A stretch of 64,000 nucleotides of DNA from a virus. Of this stretch, positions 4,239 through 63,135 are shown in pieces. The stretch lies in UHGV virus genome UHGV-0038495; one strand, written 5' to 3'. The notes below the pieces were generated by a model. The model had not been told where the DNA came from. It saw only the letters and a list, made by a program, of their open reading frames with translations, and searched no databases. The stretch's first letter is position 1. Each line of letters opens with the position of its first letter. The position numbers and the translations under genes are program-made.

Positions 4239-4799
4239 TTATTTTCTTTTTATATTTATTGTAGTTATCTTATCCTTTGCAAAAGCTATTGCAAGTTTAT
4301 ATTCCTTTTCATATTTTGTTCCTTTATGAGTTTCTTCAACAGCTTTTTCAAACTTATCTATATTACCATGAAAACAACCGCAAGATACATATATATTTCC
4401 ACCTCTACCTAAAAAGAATGTTGTAAAATCATCTCTGCTACCTATTGGGCCTACTGTAAACCAGTTCTTTTTGTCACTAATCATTGCATTATTCCCAATC
4501 TCTGCATTGCCGCGAACCCATGCATTATCACAAACTATTGTATTGCCATAAATTTGCGCGTTACCTCCAACTATCGCATTATCACGAATTTTCGCGTTAC
4601 TGTAGACTTTAGCATTATTATATACCCATGCATTACCTCCATGGCTTAAATTATTTTCACTTCCAATATACCCACCTAGTTCACCTGTTTTTACACCATT
4701 GAAATCTTTTAAAGCTTCTATTCTATATAATTTTCTTCCACAGATTGTTTTATAATCTTCAGAGATTAATCTATATTTTTTTATATCTGTATTCATCAT
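4239..4799 (-). CDS. Hexapeptide-repeat (left-handed beta-helix type) protein, short paralog
   Basis: About 8 tandem N-A-x-[IV]-x-x hexapeptides (NAKVYS NAKIRD NAIVGG NAQIYG NTIVCD NAWVRG NAEIGN NAMISD). Conserved N-terminus LYRIxALKDF...TGELGGYI.SE.NLSH.GNAWV. Conserved C-terminus VGPIGSR..TTF..GG.I.VSCGCF.G....FE. Paralog of 43740..44588. Confidence 0.55.
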   Translation of the reverse strand: MMNTDIKKYRLISEDYKTICGRKLYRIEALKDFNGVKTGELGGYIGSENNLSHGGNAWVYNNAKVYSNAKIRDNAIVGGNAQIYGNTIVCDNAWVRGNAEIGNNAMISDKKNWFTVGPIGSRDDFTTFFLGRGGNIYVSCGCFHGNIDKFEKAVEETHKGTKYEKEYKLAIAFAKDKITTINIKRK

Positions 4800-4809
4800 T
4801 ATATCTCCT

Positions 4810-5352
4810 TTAAATTTTACAATAAAATTCTTTATTGTATATTATCATATTATCATATCTTTCAGTATTATCATTATATTCTCCGTCTATTAATTCATAT
4901 ATTCTCTGATTTTTACTGCCGCGCATGGCAATTTCATAGGATTTCTGAGATTCAATAAACGGTCCATCTATTATCATATTCACTTTTAATTTTTTTAAGT
5001 TTTCTATTAATTTCTTTGGGAGTTCTTTAAAGAGATAACCCGTCCAAATCCTAATAATTATATCTGGATAGTGTTTTCTTACTTCCTTTACAATAGAAAG
5101 AACAGGTGCACAATTTGCTGGGGTTAGTGGCTCGCCGCCAAGTATATTAAAGTTACGTACTATATTATTCTTTGCTATTGCTTCTATAATTTCATTTAAT
5201 GTTTCTTCTGTAAATAACTTGCCATAGAGATAATCCCACGTCTCTGGGTTAAAACATCCGGTACAATGGTGTGGGCATCCAGATACGAAGAGGGAAACCG
5301 AAATTCCCTCTCCATTGGCTATATCATTATACTTTATATTAGCGTAATTCAT
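4810..5352 (-). CDS. nrdG: Anaerobic ribonucleotide reductase activating protein (radical SAM)
   Basis: N-terminal GCPHHCTGCFN Cys cluster. Size 180 aa. Lies immediately downstream of nrdD. Confidence 0.8.
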   Translation of the reverse strand: MNYANIKYNDIANGEGISVSLFVSGCPHHCTGCFNPETWDYLYGKLFTEETLNEIIEAIAKNNIVRNFNILGGEPLTPANCAPVLSIVKEVRKHYPDIIIRIWTGYLFKELPKKLIENLKKLKVNMIIDGPFIESQKSYEIAMRGSKNQRIYELIDGEYNDNTERYDNMIIYNKEFYCKI

Positions 5353-7467
5353 TTAATCTCCTAAATGAGTGACTCTGTCGTGAATATCTGCCGCACGACC
5401 CTCGTTAAACGGGTTTGTACTTATATATCCGCAGATTCGGAGCGCGACATTCATTTTATTATAATCATCATTACCACACTGTGGACAATGAAACTTTAAA
5501 TCATCGCCCATATAAATATCAGTACAACCACACTTATGGCAATAACTTGTCATTGTATTTATTTCAGCATACATAATATTTTCATATATATACTTAATAA
5601 CTTCTAATATTGCCGGAATATTTTTTGTCATATTTGGAGTTTCAATATAAGAAATCGCGCCACCCGGACTAAGTTCCTGAAACTCGCTTTCGATCTTTAA
5701 TTTAGAAAAAGCATCTATAGGCTGTGCCGGCGTAATATGATAACTATTAGTCACATAATCTTTATCGGTTATTCCTTTAATAATGCCAAATCTTTTCTTC
5801 AATGCTTTTGCAAACTTATAAGTTGTACTTTCTATTGGAGAACCATAAACTGAAAATCCTATAGTAGTTTCTTCTCTCCATTTAGCACAAGCATCATTTA
5901 AAGCTTGCATGACAGATAAACCGAATTCTTTACCATAATCTTCAAGCTGACTTTCTCCTGTCATATATTTAATACATTCAAATAAACCTGCATATCCAAG
6001 TGAAATTGTAGAATAATTATTATATAAAAGTTTATCTATCTTTTCGCCCGGAGCTAATCTCGCATATGCGCCATGTTGCCAGAGTATAGGAGCTACATCT
6101 GAGACAGTACCCTTTAAACTATTATGTCTTGTCATTAAAGCTCTATAACATAATTCAAGCCTCTCATCAAGAATCTTCCAAAACTTTTCCATGTTTCCAC
6201 CAGAGCTTAAAGCTACATCTGGAAGATTAATGGTAACTACACCTTGATTAAATCGACCCCAATACTTATGCCCTTCTGGGTCTGGGGTTAGGAACGACCT
6301 ACAGCCCATACAACCGTAAACGTCGCCCTTAAGTTCTCGCATCTTCTTCGCAGATATATAATCTGGCACTAAGCGCTTTGCGCTACATTCCGCAGCTAAT
6401 TTTGTAAGATACCAATATTTAGTTCCTTTTTTTATATTATTATCATCAAGACAATAAAGCAACTTAGGAAAAGCTATTGTTATAGGCGCACCTTTTTCAT
6501 TTGGAACTCCTTCAATTCTTTGTTTAAGAATTTCTTCAATTAAAGTTGCTAAATCTTTTTTAGTAACTTCATCTTCAACCTCATTAATCCACATAAAAAC
6601 CGAAGTAAAAGGTGCTTGACCATTGGTTGTACTCATTGTAATAAGCTGATACTGAATAGTTTGAACGCCATCTCTAATCTCTTCTCTTACTAAGGATTCT
6701 ATTTGTTCTGTTGTAAAATCTGGATGCTTTCTTTTTATTTCCTGTCTAGATACGTCTATAAAAGGAGCTAGATGTGCGAGCGTGATGGTATTTCCACCGT
6801 ATTGTGAGCTAGCTACTTGAGTAATAATTTGAGTTGCAATAGTACAAGCAGTTCTAAATGAATGAGGTTTATGTATCTGTACTCCAGAAATAACTGTACC
6901 ATTCTGAAGCATATCCTCAAGATTTATCAAACAACAGTTCGACATAGGCATAACGGGAGAATAGTCAGTGTCGTGGTAATGTATAATACCTGCTTCATGC
7001 GCTTCTATAATGTCTTTGGGAAGAATAACTTTTTCTGCTAATTCTCTACAAGTAAATCCTGCAATATAATCTCTCATGGTAGGAATAATTCTTGTATCTT
7101 TATTACTATTTTCTTTATTACTTTCTTCATCCTGTCCGGTAATTAATTTATGTAAGCGCTGATAACGATTTTCTAAATCACTATTCGTGGCTCTATCCTG
7201 TTCTCTTTTATATCTATATCTAATATACGCGCGAGCTACATCAGTTCTTTCAGAATCCATTAAATAAGTTTCAACTAAATTCTGTATCTCTTCGATAGAA
7301 AGAGAATCTACTGAACGCGCAATCTTTTCTATGTCATCAGCAATATCCATTGCTGTTTCATTCTCATATAATTTGCCATCAACTTCTATAAAAGCTTTAT
7401 TAATAGCTTTTATAATTTTGTTTTTATCAAAATCAACCTTACTACCATTTCTTTTAATAACTTTCAT
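5353..7467 (-). CDS. nrdD: Anaerobic ribonucleoside-triphosphate reductase (class III)
   Basis: 704 aa. C-terminal zinc ribbon (CHKCGC...CPQCG) followed by the glycyl-radical motif ALRICGYISTNPFNEGRAADIHDR. Confidence 0.9.
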   Translation of the reverse strand: MKVIKRNGSKVDFDKNKIIKAINKAFIEVDGKLYENETAMDIADDIEKIARSVDSLSIEEIQNLVETYLMDSERTDVARAYIRYRYKREQDRATNSDLENRYQRLHKLITGQDEESNKENSNKDTRIIPTMRDYIAGFTCRELAEKVILPKDIIEAHEAGIIHYHDTDYSPVMPMSNCCLINLEDMLQNGTVISGVQIHKPHSFRTACTIATQIITQVASSQYGGNTITLAHLAPFIDVSRQEIKRKHPDFTTEQIESLVREEIRDGVQTIQYQLITMSTTNGQAPFTSVFMWINEVEDEVTKKDLATLIEEILKQRIEGVPNEKGAPITIAFPKLLYCLDDNNIKKGTKYWYLTKLAAECSAKRLVPDYISAKKMRELKGDVYGCMGCRSFLTPDPEGHKYWGRFNQGVVTINLPDVALSSGGNMEKFWKILDERLELCYRALMTRHNSLKGTVSDVAPILWQHGAYARLAPGEKIDKLLYNNYSTISLGYAGLFECIKYMTGESQLEDYGKEFGLSVMQALNDACAKWREETTIGFSVYGSPIESTTYKFAKALKKRFGIIKGITDKDYVTNSYHITPAQPIDAFSKLKIESEFQELSPGGAISYIETPNMTKNIPAILEVIKYIYENIMYAEINTMTSYCHKCGCTDIYMGDDLKFHCPQCGNDDYNKMNVALRICGYISTNPFNEGRAADIHDRVTHLGD

Positions 7468-7478
7468 TAAAATACCTC

Positions 7479-8309
7479 CTAATCAAGTAAGTCTGCCATT
7501 GCCGCAGTTTCACTTCTCTCTGTTTTAAGAAGTTTTACATATCCAAAACGTGGATGTCCTTTAAGCCTATCAATCGCAGTCATAAGACCATTATTGCGCT
7601 CGAATATGGCTAAATCGGTCTGCTTAAAGTCTCCATTAATCCAGAGGTTGGAACCTTCACCTACGCGCCCTATGAGAAGCTGAATATGCTCTTTCGTCAA
7701 GTTCTCTGCTTCAGAACAAAGAATAATAGAATTCTTAATATCTCTACCTCTTATAAAGCCTAAATGAACTACTTCAACAACTCCCTTTTCTATCATATAA
7801 CTAAGTCCATCAACTCCACCTACATGGTCAGCAAGACACATCGCAAAAGGCAGAAGTTTTTCATTTGATGAACCCGGTAAATGACCTATCGGTTTAGAGT
7901 TTTTAACCTCTATATTATTTCTAACATAAACAAGTTTATCAAAATAACCTTTTTCAATTAAATCTATAGCGGCTGAACTCATTAATAAATCTTTGCCAGT
8001 ACCAAATTTACCAGTCAGAATTTTAATAGTTGTATCTGTATCATACAACATATCAATTCCTAATTTTTGCTGAATATTGCGCGGTTTGATTTTTCCCGCG
8101 AACTTAGATTCAATCGCCTTATACGGGACCTGTGCGAGCCGCCCATCTTTGCACTTAAATAAATCAATGACCTCTTCTTTTTCGTCTCTTGCGATTAAAT
8201 ATTCATTCTCAAGACAACCAAAAGTTTCATTACTTTTTGGGTCATAAAGTGCATTAATGTCATTAGGATTAGTTAAAACTATATCTTTAAAGCCTGTATA
8301 TTCAGTCAT
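7479..8309 (-). CDS. phoH: PhoH-like ATPase
   Basis: Walker A GKFGTGKD. PhoH signature ...RGRDIKNSIILCSEAENLT...LLIGRVGEGSNLWINGDFKQTDL. Confidence 0.7.
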   Translation of the reverse strand: MTEYTGFKDIVLTNPNDINALYDPKSNETFGCLENEYLIARDEKEEVIDLFKCKDGRLAQVPYKAIESKFAGKIKPRNIQQKLGIDMLYDTDTTIKILTGKFGTGKDLLMSSAAIDLIEKGYFDKLVYVRNNIEVKNSKPIGHLPGSSNEKLLPFAMCLADHVGGVDGLSYMIEKGVVEVVHLGFIRGRDIKNSIILCSEAENLTKEHIQLLIGRVGEGSNLWINGDFKQTDLAIFERNNGLMTAIDRLKGHPRFGYVKLLKTERSETAAMADLLD

Positions 8310-41808: not shown

Positions 41809-42705
41809 CTATTTTTCAGTTATAAAAGCATTATAGCCTTTAACTCTTAAATCATCTACAACTTTCTGCGCATTTGCTTTTTTGCTAAAAACGCCAACCT
41901 GACATTTATAAAGTCCATTTATAAGTTTACAATAAGCATTTTTATACCCTGCACCAATAGTATCTTCTAATCTTTTTATTCTATCTACAAGAGCAAGGCA
42001 ATTAGTCTGAGATTTAAATGCGCCAACCTGTACTGTATATAAAACCTTTTTAACTGGTTCTTCAATAGGACTAATAGTTGTCTTTCTATAAAAGCAAATT
42101 ACATTATCAACTGCGCGATTGTAGTTCTCTGAGGTTATAGATTCACCTTTGACTAAAATTTTTGTACTGCCGCCGCCATCTAAGTTTATTGCATGAGTAC
42201 AGTGTAAACCAAGCATAATATTAGTTAAGCCAGTAAAAGTTAGACCTCTGCCTTCAACAGCGACAAGAAATATCTTATTAGCATTATAACCAAGTGCAGT
42301 TCTGCGCGCCTTATAATCGAGTTCTTTAGCTATATCAGTCGAAACTCTTACACCATTGCACACAAGTGGAGGATATCCACTGATAAAATCAATGAATTTA
42401 CCTTCATCAATATTACCATATTCTAATTCACCTGTTGCGCGATTAATACCCATACCAATCTTATATTTTACTGTAGTAGAAATTGCTTTATCACCTGTTC
42501 TATACTCAAACATAGTAACGCCGTCAGCCATATTAAACAAGCCGCCATTACATATAACGTCTGGTTTTATTGTCTGCCTCTTGTAAAAAGAGCTTAAAGT
42601 CTCGCGCGGCTGCTGACATAAAGCAAAATGAATCTTTGAAAGTTCTGATTTTTCAAACTCTACTACAGTTATATCCGCATTATTTACATATTTATATGTT
42701 TTCAA
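41809..42705 (-). CDS. Phosphodiester glycosidase (NAGPA/DUF2233) fused to C-terminal SPOR domain
   Basis: CNGGLFNM, RTALGYN, AINLDGGGST (NAGPA core). The C-terminal ~75 aa YTVQVGAFKSQTNCLALVDRIK....GYNAFI is a SPOR-type fold signature. Confidence 0.55.
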   Translation of the reverse strand: MKTYKYVNNADITVVEFEKSELSKIHFALCQQPRETLSSFYKRQTIKPDVICNGGLFNMADGVTMFEYRTGDKAISTTVKYKIGMGINRATGELEYGNIDEGKFIDFISGYPPLVCNGVRVSTDIAKELDYKARRTALGYNANKIFLVAVEGRGLTFTGLTNIMLGLHCTHAINLDGGGSTKILVKGESITSENYNRAVDNVICFYRKTTISPIEEPVKKVLYTVQVGAFKSQTNCLALVDRIKRLEDTIGAGYKNAYCKLINGLYKCQVGVFSKKANAQKVVDDLRVKGYNAFITEK

Positions 42706-43659: not shown

Positions 43660-43701
43660 AACTTTATAATTATTATAACAAAATTTTTTGAGTTTTTGAA
43701 G
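43660..43701 (-). promoter_or_regulatory. Conserved promoter cassette copy
   Basis: actttataattattataacaaaattttttgagtttttgaag. Confidence 0.5.
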
Positions 43702-43739
43702 TTATAATTTTATCCTTTTTTACTGCAATTGTTATTATT

Positions 43740-44588
43740 CTATAAACTCCTGTACTTCATTTTTCTTTTTGCGAACTCTATTGCAAGCATATAATCTTCC
43801 TCATGTCTAGTACCAGAATGTTCTTTATGAACTTTATTTTCAAATTCCTGTAAACTACCACTAAAACATCCGCAAGAAACAATAATTTCACCTCCACCAT
43901 TTGTTGCAAATGTTGTATATCCTTCTCTACTGCCTATTGGACCAACTACAAAATAATCAGTCATTTTTTCAACATATGCTTTACCTGATAGATGTGCATT
44001 GCCAGATATTCTTACAGACCCACTTACCTGTGCTTCACCAGTAACCTGTGCGAAACCAAGTATAGTTGCTTTATCAGACACCTTGGAGTTACCATATATC
44101 CGTGCTTTATCTAATAAAAACACATTTCCAGATACTTGGGCATTATCATATATACGAGAATCGTCATGTATATGTGCATAATCACGAACTATTGCACAGC
44201 CGCAAACACATGAATTTTCATACAGCTGGGCATTTTCTAAAATCTGTGCATTACCATAAACTATAGCACCATTATGGATTTTAGCATTACCAGATATTTG
44301 AGCATTACCGGCTATTCTTACGTCATCTGAGAGTGATGCATTTCCGAAAACTCGTGCATACTGAGATACTAATGCATTATCACGAACTATTGCATTTTCA
44401 CAAACCCAAGCACTATTAGCTACCCAAGCATTACCTTCATGACTTAAATTATCTTCACTTTCAATATACCCACCTAGTTCACCTGTTATGATATTTCTAA
44501 AATCTTTTAATGCTACTATTCGATATAATCTATGTCCAAAAATTTCTATAAAATCATCTTTAAGTAACTCATATTTCCTGTTTACCAT
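43740..44588 (-). CDS. Hexapeptide-repeat (left-handed beta-helix type) protein, long paralog (about 25 repeats)
   Basis: Same N-terminal (LYRIVALKDF..ITGELGGYIESEDNLSHEGNAWV) and C-terminal (VGPIGSREGYTTFATNGGGEIIVSCGCFSG) modules as 4239..4799, with an expanded NAxIxx array. Confidence 0.55.
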   Translation of the reverse strand: MVNRKYELLKDDFIEIFGHRLYRIVALKDFRNIITGELGGYIESEDNLSHEGNAWVANSAWVCENAIVRDNALVSQYARVFGNASLSDDVRIAGNAQISGNAKIHNGAIVYGNAQILENAQLYENSCVCGCAIVRDYAHIHDDSRIYDNAQVSGNVFLLDKARIYGNSKVSDKATILGFAQVTGEAQVSGSVRISGNAHLSGKAYVEKMTDYFVVGPIGSREGYTTFATNGGGEIIVSCGCFSGSLQEFENKVHKEHSGTRHEEDYMLAIEFAKRKMKYRSL

Positions 44589-44592
44589 ATTA

Positions 44593-45024
44593 TTAATTTC
44601 CTTCTATTTCCCAAGTAAGCATTTTTTCAACACTAAATCTTGTATAATTAGGGTCGCAAAAACCAAATAGCCCTTTATGTAACTCATACGTCAGCATATA
44701 TTCTGTTTCATTTTCACTTGGTTGCCAAAATATGTTTCCAAGTGTATCTCTATAAATCTCTCCATGCTGTAATACTTCTAAAAAATGCCATTCTCTTTTT
44801 GTTAATGTAGGTGTCTCTTCATGCTCTTTATAAAACCATTCATAGCGTTTTTGGATACAAGGTTTATCTTCTTCTTCATAACTATCAAAGATACAATCTT
44901 TACAATTCGAGAGCGAACAAGTTTTTATACAATTATCTGCTGGTGCATTTCGTATAACTGCTATACTCTGACATTTACTTGCATTTTCTAATATAATATC
45001 TTTAAAAAACTTAAAATTTGTCAT
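44593..45024 (-). CDS. Cys-rich small protein
   Basis: CQS...C..C.L..CKDCIFD.....KPC....W. Confidence 0.4.
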   Translation of the reverse strand: MTNFKFFKDIILENASKCQSIAVIRNAPADNCIKTCSLSNCKDCIFDSYEEEDKPCIQKRYEWFYKEHEETPTLTKREWHFLEVLQHGEIYRDTLGNIFWQPSENETEYMLTYELHKGLFGFCDPNYTRFSVEKMLTWEIEGN

Positions 45025-45089
45025 TTTTTTTCTCCTTTTCTTTTTTTTCTATAATTATTATAGCAAATTTTTTTAAAAAATTTTAATAG

Positions 45090-45656
45090 TTATTTTTTAT
45101 CAGACTTTTCTTTGCAGTCACAGCAATCTCCGCATGGAACTGTAGATGAAACTGTTTTTGTACTATGGTCATGGTTGTCATAAGTATTGCATTGATCAGG
45201 GTGAAACATTAATGTTTCCGCTTCATTTATTAATTGTTGCAAATAAGAACCATAAATTAAATCATCTTTCTCTACATGAATTGAAGCACTGCCATTTGCA
45301 CTTTCTGTTGGCAAGACTCCTCCTTTATTTAAAGCTTTTGCAACAGCATTAAAAGATTCTGCTGTTAGAAATTGTTCATTTGGAAAAGAAGAATCTTCAA
45401 TAAAACGCCACCTCGTAACGTGTGTTTTTTTACTTTTATTATATCTAGCGTCATCAATATATTTCATAAGAGCAATCCAATCTTTTCTACTCCAATAACC
45501 AGACTCTCCATGTCCAATAACTTCATTGAATTGAACGCATCCCCATTCTGGTAAAGAAATTTGACTTTTTACAGTTTGCCCATGTTCGCAAAGATTTTGA
45601 CATGAATCACAACGAGTACAAATTTCTTCTGTTACTGTTTTGCCTTGGTCGCCCAT
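45090..45656 (-). CDS. Cys-rich protein
   Basis: N-terminal CTRCDSCQNLCEHGQTV. C-terminal CGDCCDCKEK. Immediately downstream of the radical-SAM gene. Confidence 0.45.
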   Translation of the reverse strand: MGDQGKTVTEEICTRCDSCQNLCEHGQTVKSQISLPEWGCVQFNEVIGHGESGYWSRKDWIALMKYIDDARYNKSKKTHVTRWRFIEDSSFPNEQFLTAESFNAVAKALNKGGVLPTESANGSASIHVEKDDLIYGSYLQQLINEAETLMFHPDQCNTYDNHDHSTKTVSSTVPCGDCCDCKEKSDKK

Positions 45657-45657
45657 A

Positions 45658-46893
45658 TTATAACCTCCTTGCTATAATACTATTGAAATACCTTATAAAA
45701 GAATCACTATTACTATCTCGCATATTTTCTATTAAATTGCGCGCCAAGTAAAAATTCATTAACTTCCAAGAGCAATCCATATTTGCATGAGTATATAAGT
45801 TACCAAACAAATCCATATTAGTAGAAGGACAAGATTTATTCTTACATATTTCTTTTCTTGGACAATCTATACATAAAGAAGGCGTTTCGCAGATTACAAT
45901 AGAAGAAGAATTAATAAATCTATTTATAAGATTAATATGTCTTGCTTTCTTATATCCAGTTTCTATGTTTCCTAAGTAAAACTTACTTCTCTTACCATGC
46001 GTGGCTTGTTCTTGACATCCATAGATAGAACCATCATAACCTATTCCCACGCAATCTTCACCCATTCCACAGTGATGCGCGCTGCGGCTATAAAATATTT
46101 CCTGCTCGCACTGAATATTTTCCTTAATAGCATCTGAAATTTGAATAAAATCTATAAATGGCTTCTTATTATCACTAAAGACTTTATCATAAAATTCATA
46201 AATCATGCCTAATTGTTCAAAAAGTATCATTTTACTCTCAGCCGTCCAGTTTTCTCGAACGTTTGGGGTAAAAAAGCAGTTAGAAAAACCCATTCGTAAA
46301 GCATAAATAAAATTATCATAAAGAAAACATGCACTTTGCGGGGTTATTGTAGCTCGGAAAGTAACTTCTGGGAATAATTTTATCATTGCAGGAATAATAT
46401 CTTGTAACTTCTCAAAGCTACTATTACCATCTTTACAAGGTCTGTTCATATCCTGAGTCTGCTTCGCGCCATCCATTGAAAAATGAGGATAAATATTATG
46501 TTCTTTCATCCATAAAAGACGTTTATAAGTTAATAAAATTCCATTTGTAGTAATAGAAAATGTGAACATCTTAGGATATGTTTGCTCAGCATAGTTTACA
46601 ACAGGAACAATAATAGAATCCCAGCAAAGTAATGGCTCACCACCGAAGAAGGTTATTCTACCTTCAGCTTTATTTTGCTCTTGTATATTATTAGCTAAAT
46701 AATCTACCGCGCTTTTTGCTGTGTCTAAAGTCATATAATGAGGATTCTGCTCAGTAAAACAATAAACACAACAATTATTACAATCATCTGTTACATTAAA
46801 AACAGCATTTGTAGGTTTATGTTTTAATTTATCATTTTGCTGCGCTTTTTGCTGGCGCGCGCCTATAATCTTTTTTCTTTCTTCTTTTGTCAT
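45658..46893 (-). CDS. Radical SAM enzyme with C-terminal SPASM/twitch-like Cys clusters
   Basis: DDCNNCCVYC contains Cx3Cx2C. GGEPLL. C-terminus CGMGEDCVGIGYDGSIYGC and CIDCPRKEICKNKSCP auxiliary-cluster-like motifs. Confidence 0.7.
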   Translation of the reverse strand: MTKEERKKIIGARQQKAQQNDKLKHKPTNAVFNVTDDCNNCCVYCFTEQNPHYMTLDTAKSAVDYLANNIQEQNKAEGRITFFGGEPLLCWDSIIVPVVNYAEQTYPKMFTFSITTNGILLTYKRLLWMKEHNIYPHFSMDGAKQTQDMNRPCKDGNSSFEKLQDIIPAMIKLFPEVTFRATITPQSACFLYDNFIYALRMGFSNCFFTPNVRENWTAESKMILFEQLGMIYEFYDKVFSDNKKPFIDFIQISDAIKENIQCEQEIFYSRSAHHCGMGEDCVGIGYDGSIYGCQEQATHGKRSKFYLGNIETGYKKARHINLINRFINSSSIVICETPSLCIDCPRKEICKNKSCPSTNMDLFGNLYTHANMDCSWKLMNFYLARNLIENMRDSNSDSFIRYFNSIIARRL

Positions 46894-47013
46894 ATTCTAC
46901 CACTTTCCTTTTTTCTTTTTTAACTTTCTTTCTTTTAATATATTATAACATAAATTTTACTGTTTCCAAATTTACTATAAAAAAAAAGGCTACCTTTCAA
47001 AGTAGCCTTTATA

Positions 47014-51866: not shown

Positions 51867-51958
51867 TGGAGGAAGGAGTGAGATTCGAACTCACATGCCG
51901 AAGAACTTCGACCTAACGCTTTAGCAGAGCGCCCTCTTTACCATTTGAGTACCCTTCC
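51867..51958 (-). tRNA. tRNA-Ser (GCU), class II with long variable arm, CCA encoded
   Basis: Acceptor GGAAGGG/TCCTTCC. Anticodon stem GCGCU/AGCGU, loop CU-GCU-AA. 7-bp variable-arm hairpin GTCGAAG-TT-CTTCGGC. T arm GTGAG-TTCGAAT-CTCAC. Ends TCCA. Confidence 0.8.
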
Positions 51959-52312
51959 TTATCTATATCCTACTTTATCATACATTGGCGCGAATGTCTT
52001 TACTCTATTATGAGTTACAATACCTAACAATTTCTTTTTATTATCTTTTTCTTTAATATAAATCTTGGATTCATCTGTACTGACCGCGCCTCTACCTTTA
52101 GGGTACGTAAACCGCTTCGCGCATTTTTCAAGATATTTCATATCAACCGTTGGTATTTCCATGCGCCCAGCAGAACTAATTATAATGAATACTGGTAAGC
52201 CATCCTTGTTAAAATAAGGATTGGCTTCAGCAATCTTACCACACCAATCTATATGAAATTCAGAATGAACATCTGTAGTTATAAGGTGTGTCTTTATCTT
52301 TACCTCTTGCAT
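51959..52312 (-). CDS. hypothetical protein
   Basis: ORF on the coding strand between tRNAs. Confidence 0.35.
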   Translation of the reverse strand: MQEVKIKTHLITTDVHSEFHIDWCGKIAEANPYFNKDGLPVFIIISSAGRMEIPTVDMKYLEKCAKRFTYPKGRGAVSTDESKIYIKEKDNKKKLLGIVTHNRVKTFAPMYDKVGYR

Positions 52313-52314
52313 AT

Positions 52315-52521
52315 TTATCTCCTTTGTAAGTTTGCGAAAAAATCTGTTATATCTTTATTTTCTTTTCTTGTTTCTATTGTTTCACTTGGTTCTATACTAT
52401 TTGTTTTATGATTTGGATTATTTTCTTTCCAACATTTCAAAAAATGTCTTGACATTCTACTTTCTTTTTCATTTTCAAATTCGCATTTACATATTGGGCA
52501 AATATACATTTTATTCTCCAT
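52315..52521 (-). CDS. Small zinc-ribbon protein
   Basis: CPICKC....H..C. Confidence 0.35.
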   Translation of the reverse strand: MENKMYICPICKCEFENEKESRMSRHFLKCWKENNPNHKTNSIEPSETIETRKENKDITDFFANLQRR

Positions 52522-52875
52522 TTTAAGTTTTCAGGTTTAGATTAAATTGGCGGCGGATGAAGGTAACGCTCCTTCTCTTTTTGGGTCAAAGCCAAATGTA
52601 CTAACTTTTATACGAATCCGCTATATTAAAGCGGGTTCTAAGGTCAACCCGCAGACCGTTCAGAAAGGGGACAAAAAATGAATAAAAAAATATCTTCAAA
52701 TGGAAACTTAAGCCTTTCTAAGTTTCCTCTCTAATTTTCTCTTTACTCCCGGAGATTTCATATTAATTTCTCTCGCGTTAAGTTTTGCAAGTCGCGCACT
52801 ATAAATTGCTTTCTTCTGTTCTCTTGTCATAATCTTTCTCCTTTAGTATATCTTCAAATTCTTTCCTTTTTTTAT

Positions 52876-52950
52876 TGGTGCGCCCGGACGGTTACGATCC
52901 GACCTAATCGAAATTAAAAGTTTCGTGCCTCTCCACTAGGCTACGGGCAC
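52876..52950 (-). tRNA. tRNA-Lys (UUU), non-canonical T arm
   Basis: Perfect 7-bp acceptor GTGCCCG/CGGGCGC plus ACCA. D stem GCCT/AGGC. Anticodon stem CGAAA/TTTCG, loop CU-UUU-AA. T stem has one T-T mismatch and the T loop is ATCGTAA rather than TTCRANY. Confidence 0.5.
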
Positions 52951-52954
52951 ATGT

Positions 52955-53030
52955 TGGTGGAGGTTAAGAGATTCGAACTCTTGACCTTCTGCGTGCAAAG
53001 CAGATGCTCTCCCAACTGAGCTAAACCCCC
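52955..53030 (-). tRNA. tRNA-Ala (UGC), CCA encoded
   Basis: Acceptor GGGGGTT/AACCTCC with the G3-U70 Ala identity pair. D arm GCTCAGTTGGGAGAGC. Anticodon loop UU-UGC-AC. T arm AAGAG-TTCGAAT-CTCTT. Confidence 0.8.
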
Positions 53031-53367
53031 ATTTATTCCTTTTTCCTCCGTCAGAGCAGATTAAGGATAACTGGCACGCGTACTATAAGGATTTTCTCCC
53101 TCAAGCGGAAAACCCGTTAGAAAATAACTACTTCTAATTTAGCAAATCTATACCTTAGACCTATCGAAGAAACATTTTAAAGCAATCGACTTCCGCGGGT
53201 GCAACTACTTTGCAATGCTACCGTATCTTTAGTGATGTGTATAAATCAGTATCCGAGAGACGCCACGAGGAGGCATTAGAAGACTTTTTATCTCTCATAA
53301 GTGGAAGCTGCAATCTCCCACTTTATCTATCATAATGTGAGGAGGTGAATTATGATACATTTCATGC

Positions 53368-53441
53368 TGGAGCCAATAACGAGAATCGAACTCATAACTA
53401 AGCCTTACCATGGCTTTGTTTTACCTTTAAACTATATCGGC
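53368..53441 (-). tRNA. tRNA-Thr (GGU), CCA encoded
   Basis: Acceptor GCCGATA/TATTGGC (one G-U). D arm GTTT-AAAGGTA-AAAC. Anticodon stem AAGCC/GGCTT, loop AU-GGU-AA. T arm ATGAG-TTCGATT-CTCGT. Confidence 0.7.
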
Positions 53442-62733: not shown

Positions 62734-63135
62734 TTATACCTCTTCATTAAGATACTCTTTCTTTAATTCAGTACAGGAGCCATATTTATCAAAAAGACAG
62801 TTATGACAACTTAGTAAATTACACTTAGCATAGTTATCCCATTTATCTACTGTTATTGTATCATAGATATAGTCCATAATATCTTCATTCTGCTTCTCAA
62901 AATTTGTTGTTATCCATTTATGTGTTGCCCGAATAGCTTCAGCTATATTTTTATGACAAGCAGAATTTATTAAACAATCGTCACAGTAAAGTTCCCTACA
63001 AAAATATATTTTATTATCACCAATACCTATACCAGTATCTTCAGCCAATAAATCAAACAATACTTCTTTATCTCTCTCAAATCTTGTCATTATATCTCCT
63101 CCTCTAACCAAGCTATTAATGTAGGCGTACAGCAA
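62734..63135 (-). CDS. Cys-x2-Cys small-protein family member (two modules)
   Basis: LYCDDCLINSAC ... LSCHNCLFDKYGSC....YLNEEV-COOH. Confidence 0.45.
   Translation of the reverse strand: MLYAYINSLVRGGDIMTRFERDKEVLFDLLAEDTGIGIGDNKIYFCRELYCDDCLINSACHKNIAEAIRATHKWITTNFEKQNEDIMDYIYDTITVDKWDNYAKCNLLSCHNCLFDKYGSCTELKKEYLNEEV

Follow-up and report, generated by a model that had tools for sequence, protein, structure and literature searches.

What does a bacteriophage gain from a radical S-adenosylmethionine (SAM) enzyme encoded next to a cysteine-rich protein, and on what would such an enzyme act? This question is raised by a 64,000-nucleotide stretch of the virus genome UHGV-0038495 (the window, by which we mean this whole stretch), where the gene for a 411-aa radical SAM/SPASM protein is directly followed by the gene for a 188-aa protein with two cysteine-rich tails (the partner). 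We suggest that the enzyme installs thioether staples from Cys to Asp, Glu, Asn or Gln in a partner that belongs to the virion module, much as QhpD does in QhpC, rather than maturing a leader-dependent peptide that is synthesized by the ribosome and modified post-translationally (RiPP). We regard this reading as evenly poised. On sequence grounds, the 188-aa protein is the most plausible substrate of the enzyme.

The three minus-strand open reading frames (ORFs) predicted in the initial annotation, encoding 411, 188 and 143 aa, were verified at the positions listed in Table 1, and each of them stops with TAA. The identification of the 411-aa product as a radical SAM protein with a Cx3Cx2C triad and C-terminal SPASM cysteines was borne out. 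The triad C38-x3-C42-x2-C45 sits within DDCNNCCVYC, and the enzyme also carries an FFGGEP motif that is invariant in 20 homologs. The Radical_SAM family PF04055 was matched with 48.7 bits against a cutoff of 29.5 (E-value 1.3e-12), and Fer4_12 was matched as well. Seven cysteines of the SPASM region, arranged as C275-x12-G288-x4-C293 ... C341-x2-C344-x5-C350-x4-C355 ... C374, are invariant in the same 20 homologs. They follow the canonical pattern C-x9-15-G-x4-C ... C-x2-C-x5-C-x3-C ... C, with x4 replacing x3 in one gap. The Pfam SPASM model PF13186 did not match the window enzyme, although one of the homologs (P0019) carries it. In CteB, auxiliary cluster 1 is held by three cysteines (C344, C362, C413), with one iron left open to bind the Cys or Sec of the substrate, and auxiliary cluster 2 is held by four (C400, C403, C409, C432; PMC10177961). 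Since the cysteine spacing of the phage enzyme matches that of CteB, we predict C275, C293 and C355 as ligands of auxiliary cluster 1 and C341, C344, C350 and C374 as ligands of auxiliary cluster 2. The window enzyme shares an extra cysteine, C281 (codon 46051-46053), with its closest relatives, but this is no trait of the family, since homologs of 74% and 54% identity have Phe or Ser at the position.

The placement of the enzyme in a peptide- or protein-modifying clade, away from QueE and NrdG, also stood, with full-length matches to PapB, CteB, the SCIFF maturase and QhpD. Among the NCBIfam models, the best match was the PapB ranthipeptide maturase (NF047865; E-value 1.1e-50, 172.7 bits, cutoff 340), aligned over profile positions 8-326 of 330. 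It was followed by the nif11-peptide maturase (6.7e-39, 133.9 bits, cutoff 518.7), the SCIFF maturase (TIGR03974; 2.4e-30, 105.8 bits, cutoff 425), QhpD (TIGR03906; 9.5e-30, 103.6 bits, cutoff 453) and the CXXX-repeat maturase (1.4e-29, 103.7 bits, cutoff 350), whereas anSME (TIGR03942) was matched far more weakly (7e-18, 64.8 bits, cutoff 349.45). A profile search of solved structures gave the same picture, with CteB (5WGG) as the best match (6e-43, over CteB residues 91-446) and anSME at 8e-19. Neither QueE nor NrdG was among the matches in NCBIfam or in the solved structures. Because the alignment begins at CteB residue 91, the phage enzyme lacks an N-terminal domain of about 90 residues, which we take to be the RiPP recognition element (RRE) of CteB. 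An AlphaFold2 (AF2) model of the enzyme had a predicted local distance difference test score (pLDDT) of 91, and CteB was its top Foldseek match (2e-19). Judged by its profiles, the enzyme thus falls in the thioether-type SPASM clade, yet is a member of no curated family. It is the sequence profiles, and not the fold by itself, that distinguish thioether maturases from anSME in this case.

By its layout, the partner gene is translationally coupled to the enzyme gene. The enzyme's stop codon (45658-45660) and the partner's ATG (45654-45656) are separated by 1 nt, and the partner's ribosome-binding site is embedded in the coding sequence that precedes it. The pair may form a transcription unit of its own, coming after a terminator-like hairpin and a promoter-like site. 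Terminator-like sites numbered 8 in the region scan against 2.9 expected. Promoter-like matches numbered 25 against 26.4 expected, which is chance level, and claims about transcription units are therefore tentative.

The partner contains ten cysteines, at residues 13, 16, 19, 23, 40, 156, 175, 178, 179 and 181, and eight of the ten lie in the two tails (hypergeometric P = 0.0013). In the N-terminal tail, C16 and C23 are invariant, while conservation is at least 90% at C13 and C19. The AF2 model shows a moderately confident core with helices at residues 57-72, 99-110 and 136-147, flanked by two disordered tails. The cysteine content of the partner (5.3%) and of the 143-aa ORF further downstream (4.9%) compares with a window median of 1.6%, ranking them 8 and 10 among 78 ORFs. 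In an exhaustive profile search, the partner family comprised 352 clusters at 50% identity, 187 of them at E <= 1e-10. Nearly all of these proteins are 150-260 aa long and align end to end. In the 130 representatives of the family that were compared, the Cys share is 17% in the N-terminal quarter, 1.4% in the middle and 18% in the C-terminal part, and N, D, Q or E comes straight after a tail Cys in 69% of cases.

To place this gene pair among its relatives, 80 viral loci were gathered by means of the enzyme-homolog alignment and dereplicated to 66 non-identical loci for counts of gene placement. An ORF was called Cys-dense when it held at least 7 Cys in 30 residues. A partner homolog lies directly downstream of the enzyme gene in L002 (enzyme 95% identical), L004 (54%), L006 (41%, TAG-recoded), L009 and L010 (both 37%), L012 (36%), L016 (35%) and phage Phass-1 (L001, 31%), in which the partner ORF is unannotated. 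When the enzyme is at least 29% identical to that of the window, 67% of loci have a Cys-dense ORF at position +1. Below 29% identity, the Cys-dense ORF is instead found at -1 or -2, in 53-60% of loci. Only 0.2% of 532 background ORFs are Cys-dense, so that the adjacency is enriched roughly 300-fold. It is kept over a range of enzyme identities from 95% to about 26% and with differing passenger domains.

What these neighbors share is a tract with the repeat C-[QEDN]-[STG]-x, in which Cys makes up 29% of residues. The cysteines are mostly spaced 3-4 residues apart, position +1 is dominated by Q, E, D or N and position +2 by S, T or G. The tract is attached to several kinds of protein. These include the core found in the window partner, which matched the C-terminal domain of fibronectin type III (FN3)-type partners (hhalign 96%, E-value 1.5e-9). 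In some loci the tract is fused to fn3 domains, and tract-bearing partners also matched tail-protein PHROGs. Elsewhere it is fused to Hoc-like immunoglobulin (Ig) arrays that match the head decoration family phrog_10993 (1e-85 to 1e-92), and it also occurs on proteins of 720-790 aa. Pairs of this kind turn up within tail-gene modules in many phages that are unrelated to one another. The gene pair lies between tape-measure or tail proteins and a tail protein in L036, between a baseplate wedge and a tail fiber in L066, and between tail-fiber-like genes and lysis genes in the window. Considering that the tracts of its relatives are fused to FN3, Ig and other domains in tail and baseplate modules, we suggest that the window partner is most likely virion-associated as well, as a tail or decoration protein.

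The residue classes enriched after tract Cys are exactly the known acceptors of the clade: freyrasin is linked at Asp, QhpC at Asp and Glu, NxxcA at Asn and CteA at Thr (PMC8326336). We propose that the two proteins make up a two-gene module of enzyme and substrate, whose expression would coincide with that of the late (virion) genes. The enzyme, of the CteB/PapB/QhpD type, is a radical SAM/SPASM protein with three clusters. Its CxxxCxxC cluster would cleave SAM to give a 5'-deoxyadenosyl radical. This radical would remove a hydrogen from the side chain of an acceptor (Asp, Glu, Asn, Gln or Thr) beside a tail Cys, while auxiliary cluster 1 holds the thiolate of the donor Cys at its open iron. 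An intramolecular thioether from Cys sulfur to carbon would result. The predicted product is a small protein with both tails locked by redox-insensitive staples, and such thioethers could stand in for disulfides, which would be unworkable in the reducing, protease-rich anaerobic gut. With neither a leader on the partner nor a leader-recognition domain in the enzyme, recognition probably proceeds via the repeat motif or the folded core. What the sequences show is the class of the enzyme, its cluster ligands, the coupling of the two genes, their conserved synteny, the motif of the tract and the genomic position. That the enzyme acts on the partner, that it forms thioethers and that the partner is located in the virion are the three parts of this proposal that we infer.

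Several results weigh against this proposal. The link between enzyme and substrate is built of synteny and motif logic alone, and dense Cys repeats could equally serve as metal ligands. No named maturase family has a curated cutoff that the enzyme reaches, so that its reaction is not transferable by membership. Its fold does not separate it from anSME either (Foldseek 2e-19 for CteB and 3e-17 for anSME). The AF2 model of the partner had a pLDDT of 55, and Foldseek searches with it against BFVD and the PDB gave nothing significant. Neither the partner nor its core matched any virion protein family, so that a location in the virion is suggested by its relatives and gene position only. The window partner is also Cys-poor for its family, with 10 Cys against a median of 21.5, and its tails fall below the Cys-dense threshold used for the locus statistics. 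Finally, about a third of the loci with at least 29% enzyme identity lack a Cys-dense ORF at +1 by the threshold used here. Some of these exceptions are truncated loci, some have tandem radical SAM genes and some have another partner, such as L067.

We weighed four other explanations, taken here in descending order of weight. The first is that the product is a diffusible RiPP, with one or both Cys-rich tails modified by the enzyme, cleaved from a 188-aa precursor and, once the cell lyses, set free to act as a bacteriocin or signal of the ranthipeptide kind. The top matches of the enzyme are indeed RiPP maturases. The tract motif resembles cores of the SCIFF and freyrasin type, and SCIFF-derived ranthipeptides are listed with a role in quorum sensing (PMC8326336). 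A RiPP system in the strict sense is nonetheless doubtful. The partners have no leader, their Cys tracts beginning at residues 2-13, and the partner sequence has no signal peptide. Ten partner proteins matched no precursor-family model, including that of SCIFF. The enzyme has no RRE domain, and the neighborhood shows no protease, transporter or other exporter. In addition, a conserved folded core has tracts on either end, and FN3 and Ig proteins of 300-790 aa carry them in the tail modules of relatives. We therefore consider a diffusible product unlikely.

Somewhat behind it, and likewise improbable, is a partner that binds metal, whose tails would ligate Zn or an Fe-S cluster. The partner could then either assist the radical SAM enzyme, by donating electrons, carrying clusters or acting as a chaperone, or be a metalloprotein in its own right, and the true substrate would be elsewhere, for example a tail-fiber protein or a host molecule. 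Metals are classically bound by repeats of CxxC and CxxxC. In the window partner, eight Cys form two compact groups of four (13/16/19/23 and 175/178/179/181), each a possible tetrahedral site, and the partner core has no recognizable virion fold. However, the relatives carry from 7 to 81 Cys per protein, which is unexpected for a defined cofactor site, and the strong bias to N, D, Q and E right after Cys coincides with the acceptor classes of the clade. That the tract rides on unrelated passengers yet stays beside the enzyme gene fits a modified tag better than an accessory.

A third explanation, which we consider quite improbable, is an oxidation like that performed by anSME, in which a tract Cys (or Ser) would be converted to formylglycine or another oxidized residue without crosslinks. 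As structural matches, the anSME structures are nearly equal to CteB, and anSME also acts on proteins without an RRE. The extra C281 gives the window enzyme the spacing C275-x5-C281-x11-C293. This cysteine is not kept even in a 74%-identical homolog, and the anSME profiles are far weaker than those of the thioether maturases in both searches (7e-18 versus 1e-50, and 8e-19 versus 6e-43). Moreover, the motif C/S-x-P/A-x-R is absent from both downstream ORFs, and the window's ORF list includes no sulfatase nearby. Last, the adjacency could be incidental and the enzyme the product of an auxiliary metabolic gene, with a small molecule as substrate, in keeping with neither protein reaching a curated family cutoff and with functions that are unproven, but this is strongly disfavored by the coupling of the two genes, by an association kept over the whole identity range and across passengers at roughly 300-fold over background, and by matches that do not include small-molecule radical SAM families such as QueE and NrdG.

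Stapling of the 188-aa partner thus remains our preferred reading, and the question of substrates extends to the other Cys-containing proteins of the window. The initial annotation took both Cys-rich downstream ORFs for co-encoded substrates on the same transcript as the enzyme. Of the two, the 188-aa ORF, which is coupled, conserved and Cys-tailed, is the putative substrate and may share the transcript of the enzyme. The 143-aa ORF begins 65 nt beyond it and has a separate promoter-like element in front. L002 matches the window collinearly, with about 91% nucleotide identity, apart from an insertion in the window at about 45017 to 43688, which carries exactly the 143-aa ORF and a beta-solenoid gene; L004 also lacks both. 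The same extended -10 promoter-like element stands at both junctions of the insertion and occurs as a single copy in L002. The family of the 143-aa ORF, phrog_22292, is dispersed and has another member in the window at 62734-63135, and the solenoid gene has a paralog at 4239-4799. In the 143-aa ORF, the Cys are followed by Q, I, S, K, I, I and D, at odds with the tract motif. On the strength of these four observations (absence from L002 and L004, own promoter-like copy, dispersed family and motif misfit), we rejected this ORF as a second substrate. A further suggestion, that a large family of small Cx2C proteins in the window could serve as substrates, was abandoned. BLASTP within the window found only three paralog relations, none of them among small CxxC proteins, the tract motif was not found in these proteins, and nothing ties them to the enzyme.

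Table 1. Positions of the enzyme-partner pair, its parts and adjoining features in the window
Feature	Position	Strand	Basis or remark
Radical SAM/SPASM enzyme, CteB/PapB-like, without N-terminal RRE, 411 aa	45658..46893	-	Profiles, homolog alignment, AF2 model
Codons of the radical-SAM [4Fe-4S] triad C38-x3-C42-x2-C45	46759..46782	-	Nearly invariant in 20 homologs
SPASM region, residues 275-374	45772..46071	-	Seven Cys invariant, alignment to CteB 91-446
Conserved partner, putative substrate, 188 aa: Cys-rich N-tail, helical core, Cys-rich C-tail	45090..45656	-	
Partner N-tail, residues 1-25, C13-T-R-C16-D-S-C19-Q-N-L-C23-E	45582..45656	-	Predicted disordered, pLDDT below 50
Partner core, residues 26-156, three main helices	45189..45581	-	AF2, hhalign
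Partner C-tail, residues 157-188, C175-G-D-C178-C179-D-C181	45093..45188	-	Predicted disordered
AAGGAGG ribosome-binding site of the partner gene, inside the last codons of the enzyme gene	45664..45670	-	Sequence read
143-aa ORF	44593..45024	-	
Moron-like insertion, 1.33 kb, outside the module: 143-aa ORF and 282-aa solenoid gene	43688..45017	-	Comparison with L002
YdcK-like beta-solenoid gene, 282 aa	43740..44588	-	
Terminator-like hairpin, 11-bp stem and T-run, closing the upstream tail-fiber-like gene	46985..47010	-	Scan
Promoter-like TTGGAA-16-TG-TATAAT 5' of the radical SAM gene, consensus match only	46942..46969	-	Scan, weak

The window is a stretch of a large gut phage genome with a low GC content (about 33%) and all genes on the minus strand. 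Identical copies of the studied proteins are present on metagenomic contigs of about 142 kb. A megablast search of the region against known phages gave zero matches, and the nearest GenBank phage protein to the enzyme is that of Phass-1. Tail-fiber-like genes lie 5' of the enzyme gene. On the 3' side of the module are small ORFs, a holin-sized membrane ORF and a gene at 41809-42705 whose product combines NAGPA (phosphodiester glycosidase) and SPOR domains and is a likely endolysin. An NrdG-like activase (180 aa, CxxxCxxC) and an NrdD-like anaerobic ribonucleotide reductase (704 aa) are encoded at 4810-7467, which suggests a strictly anaerobic host. Five tRNA genes (Ser-GCT, Gln-TTG, Lys-TTT, Ala-TGC and Thr-GGT) are clustered at 51867-53441 in ORF-poor surroundings that separate the structural genes from the gene block after them.

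Many relatives of the module, among them those of L006, L009, L012, L013, L018, L040, L046, L067 and L068, belong to phages in which TAG is recoded. These have 1-11 in-frame TAGs in the radical SAM gene and further TAGs in the partner. Since in-frame TAGs have been reported mainly for late genes (PMC10607447), we count them toward a virion context. In the window's own phage, TAG serves as the stop codon of 15 genes and no recoding is visible. The five tRNAs of the window are all ordinary, with no suppressor tRNA among them. Because the three ORFs end in TAA and the window has no suppressor tRNA, their boundaries hold in spite of the recoded relatives, and we rejected the idea that recoding had shifted them. 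Phass-1 (OQ749652.1; L001 5968-7686, about 67828-69546, minus strand) has its radical SAM gene split into two "hypothetical protein" coding sequences at an in-frame TAG, and its 174-aa Cys-tailed partner directly downstream (L001 7162-7686) has no annotation in the GenBank record.

Related gene pairs also occur outside of free phages. Prophage-like copies with about 32% enzyme identity, in which the tract is kept, were found in Oscillospiraceae metagenome-assembled genomes, Aedoeadaptatus nemausensis and Peptoniphilus. Bacterial radical SAM proteins at 27% identity or less had no tract alongside. The copy in the cultured isolate Aedoeadaptatus nemausensis (L092; NZ_CAIJCS010000019.1, 119745-130776) has a 32% identical radical SAM enzyme with a Cys tract downstream. 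The related viral locus L066 has a Hoc-like Ig-array partner that bears the same tract sequence.

Other architectures were found among the viral loci. In L061, L063, L064, L065 and L068 (about 6000-8300), two different radical SAM/SPASM genes stand in tandem before the Cys-tract ORF, which suggests two-enzyme versions of the module. The distant relatives L074 (4771-5601) and L078 (4720-5550), and also L077, L080 and L083, have enzymes of about 430-500 aa with 26-28% identity. Their radical SAM genes are preceded by genes for whole-protein C-x-x-C lattices, for example with 76-81 Cys in 276 aa and the unit ACYTGQC repeated. In L067 (7160-8134), the ORF that follows the radical SAM gene has only 2 Cys and contains a low-complexity tract rich in Tyr, Ser and Asn (…YSNYSNTYSRYSRYSDYDNYYNYS…) followed by Ig-like sequence, which may reflect a different substrate chemistry.

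The spread of the tract over many proteins invites a bolder generalization. Phages of strict anaerobes would share a portable system, a Cys-tract tag plus a dedicated radical SAM/SPASM stapler, that places multiple thioethers in virion surface proteins (tail, baseplate, head-decoration and small tail-module proteins) as a redox-proof substitute for disulfides, in hundreds of lineages including TAG-recoded gut phages. The stapled proteins would then make up a class of post-translationally crosslinked virion proteins that had so far gone unnoticed. We hold this to be possible, though we lean against it. A full-text literature search, incomplete in its coverage, found no account of a phage radical SAM enzyme paired with Cys-tract virion proteins, and the Phass-1 paper does not mention the radical SAM gene. 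Both proteins are "hypothetical" or "uncharacterized" in public sources. What is known beforehand is the enzyme class and, by inference, its chemistry; the substrate class, the context and the leader-independent architecture are new.

If stapling of the partner is correct, radical SAM thioether chemistry would reach the proteins of phage particles, beyond small secreted RiPPs and one bacterial dehydrogenase subunit. It would then explain how extracellular protein parts are stabilized without disulfides in phages of obligate anaerobes, and it would define a sizeable unannotated family, with at least 352 clusters for the small partner alone, all of them named "hypothetical". Leader-independent, multi-site stapling enzymes for peptides and proteins could also be of use in biotechnology. 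The split enzyme gene and the missing partner of the Phass-1 record are corrected here, and the Aedoeadaptatus nemausensis copy is a possible experimental handle in a cultured bacterium.

Lastly, we compared the pair with known systems. The enzyme matches the phage radical SAM family phrog_1802 (2.3e-26). Its sole homologs in cultured phages are the radical SAM proteins of Campylobacter phages CP220 and CPt10, at 24% identity, and both these proteins and phrog_1802 are annotated only as "radical SAM domain-containing". We rejected them as a cultured example of the module, since the CPt10 gene has no Cys-tract neighbor. The defense enzyme pVip (prokaryotic viperin) was rejected too, as the PADLOC matches (4e-16) cover only the generic radical SAM core (residues 32-170) and not the full length. 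The locus also differs from a canonical RiPP cluster, given that leader and N-terminal enzyme domain are absent and that its neighbors are tail-fiber-like, small unknown, holin-like and endolysin-like.

Relative to anSME (4K36-4K39), the phage enzyme has a comparable size and fold, and both have no RRE and a protein as substrate, the latter putative in the phage. The sequence relation is much weaker, however, and the seven-Cys SPASM pattern of the phage family is the one shared with CteB. With 64.8 bits, no sulfatase in the window's ORF list and no C/S-x-P/A-x-R motif downstream, the enzyme is not a member of the anSME family. CteB, of the SCIFF system, is its best solved-structure match by both sequence and fold, with the same spacing of triad and seven SPASM cysteines. 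Its substrates are Cys-rich as well, with C-x2-3-C spacing and polar acceptors. The SCIFF maturases, CteB included, are typical of Clostridia. Unlike CteB, the phage enzyme lacks about 90 N-terminal residues and scores below the TIGR03974 cutoff, and its partner is a folded 188-aa protein with two tails instead of a leader-plus-core peptide of about 45 residues with six Cys. On score, N-terminal domain, length of the neighbor and lack of a precursor match, this is not a SCIFF system.

PapB, the best NCBIfam match, works on substrates in which C-x3-D recurs, joins Cys to the C-beta of Asp by thioethers at several of these motifs and will also take peptides reduced to the bare motif (PMC10177961). 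Acidic or amide residues recur in the repeats of the phage tracts too, but with Q, E, D or N right after Cys and a spacing of 3-4 rather than a strict CX3D, and the putative substrate is a phage protein. At 172.7 bits against a cutoff of 340, the enzyme lies outside the PapB family. QhpD, a significant profile match, puts Cys-Asp and Cys-Glu thioethers into a protein subunit, QhpC, which is not a RiPP (PMC8326336), and so offers a precedent for a protein-subunit substrate. The phage partner is unrelated to QhpC, the gamma subunit of quinohemoprotein amine dehydrogenase. It is encoded in a tail and lysis region, and the window contains no amine dehydrogenase genes. By its score and the lack of a qhpC/qhpA/qhpB operon the phage enzyme is not a QhpD but would be a functional analog only. 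Considering that leader and RRE are both absent, we suggest that the logic of the phage pair is closer to that of QhpD and QhpC than to a RiPP pathway.

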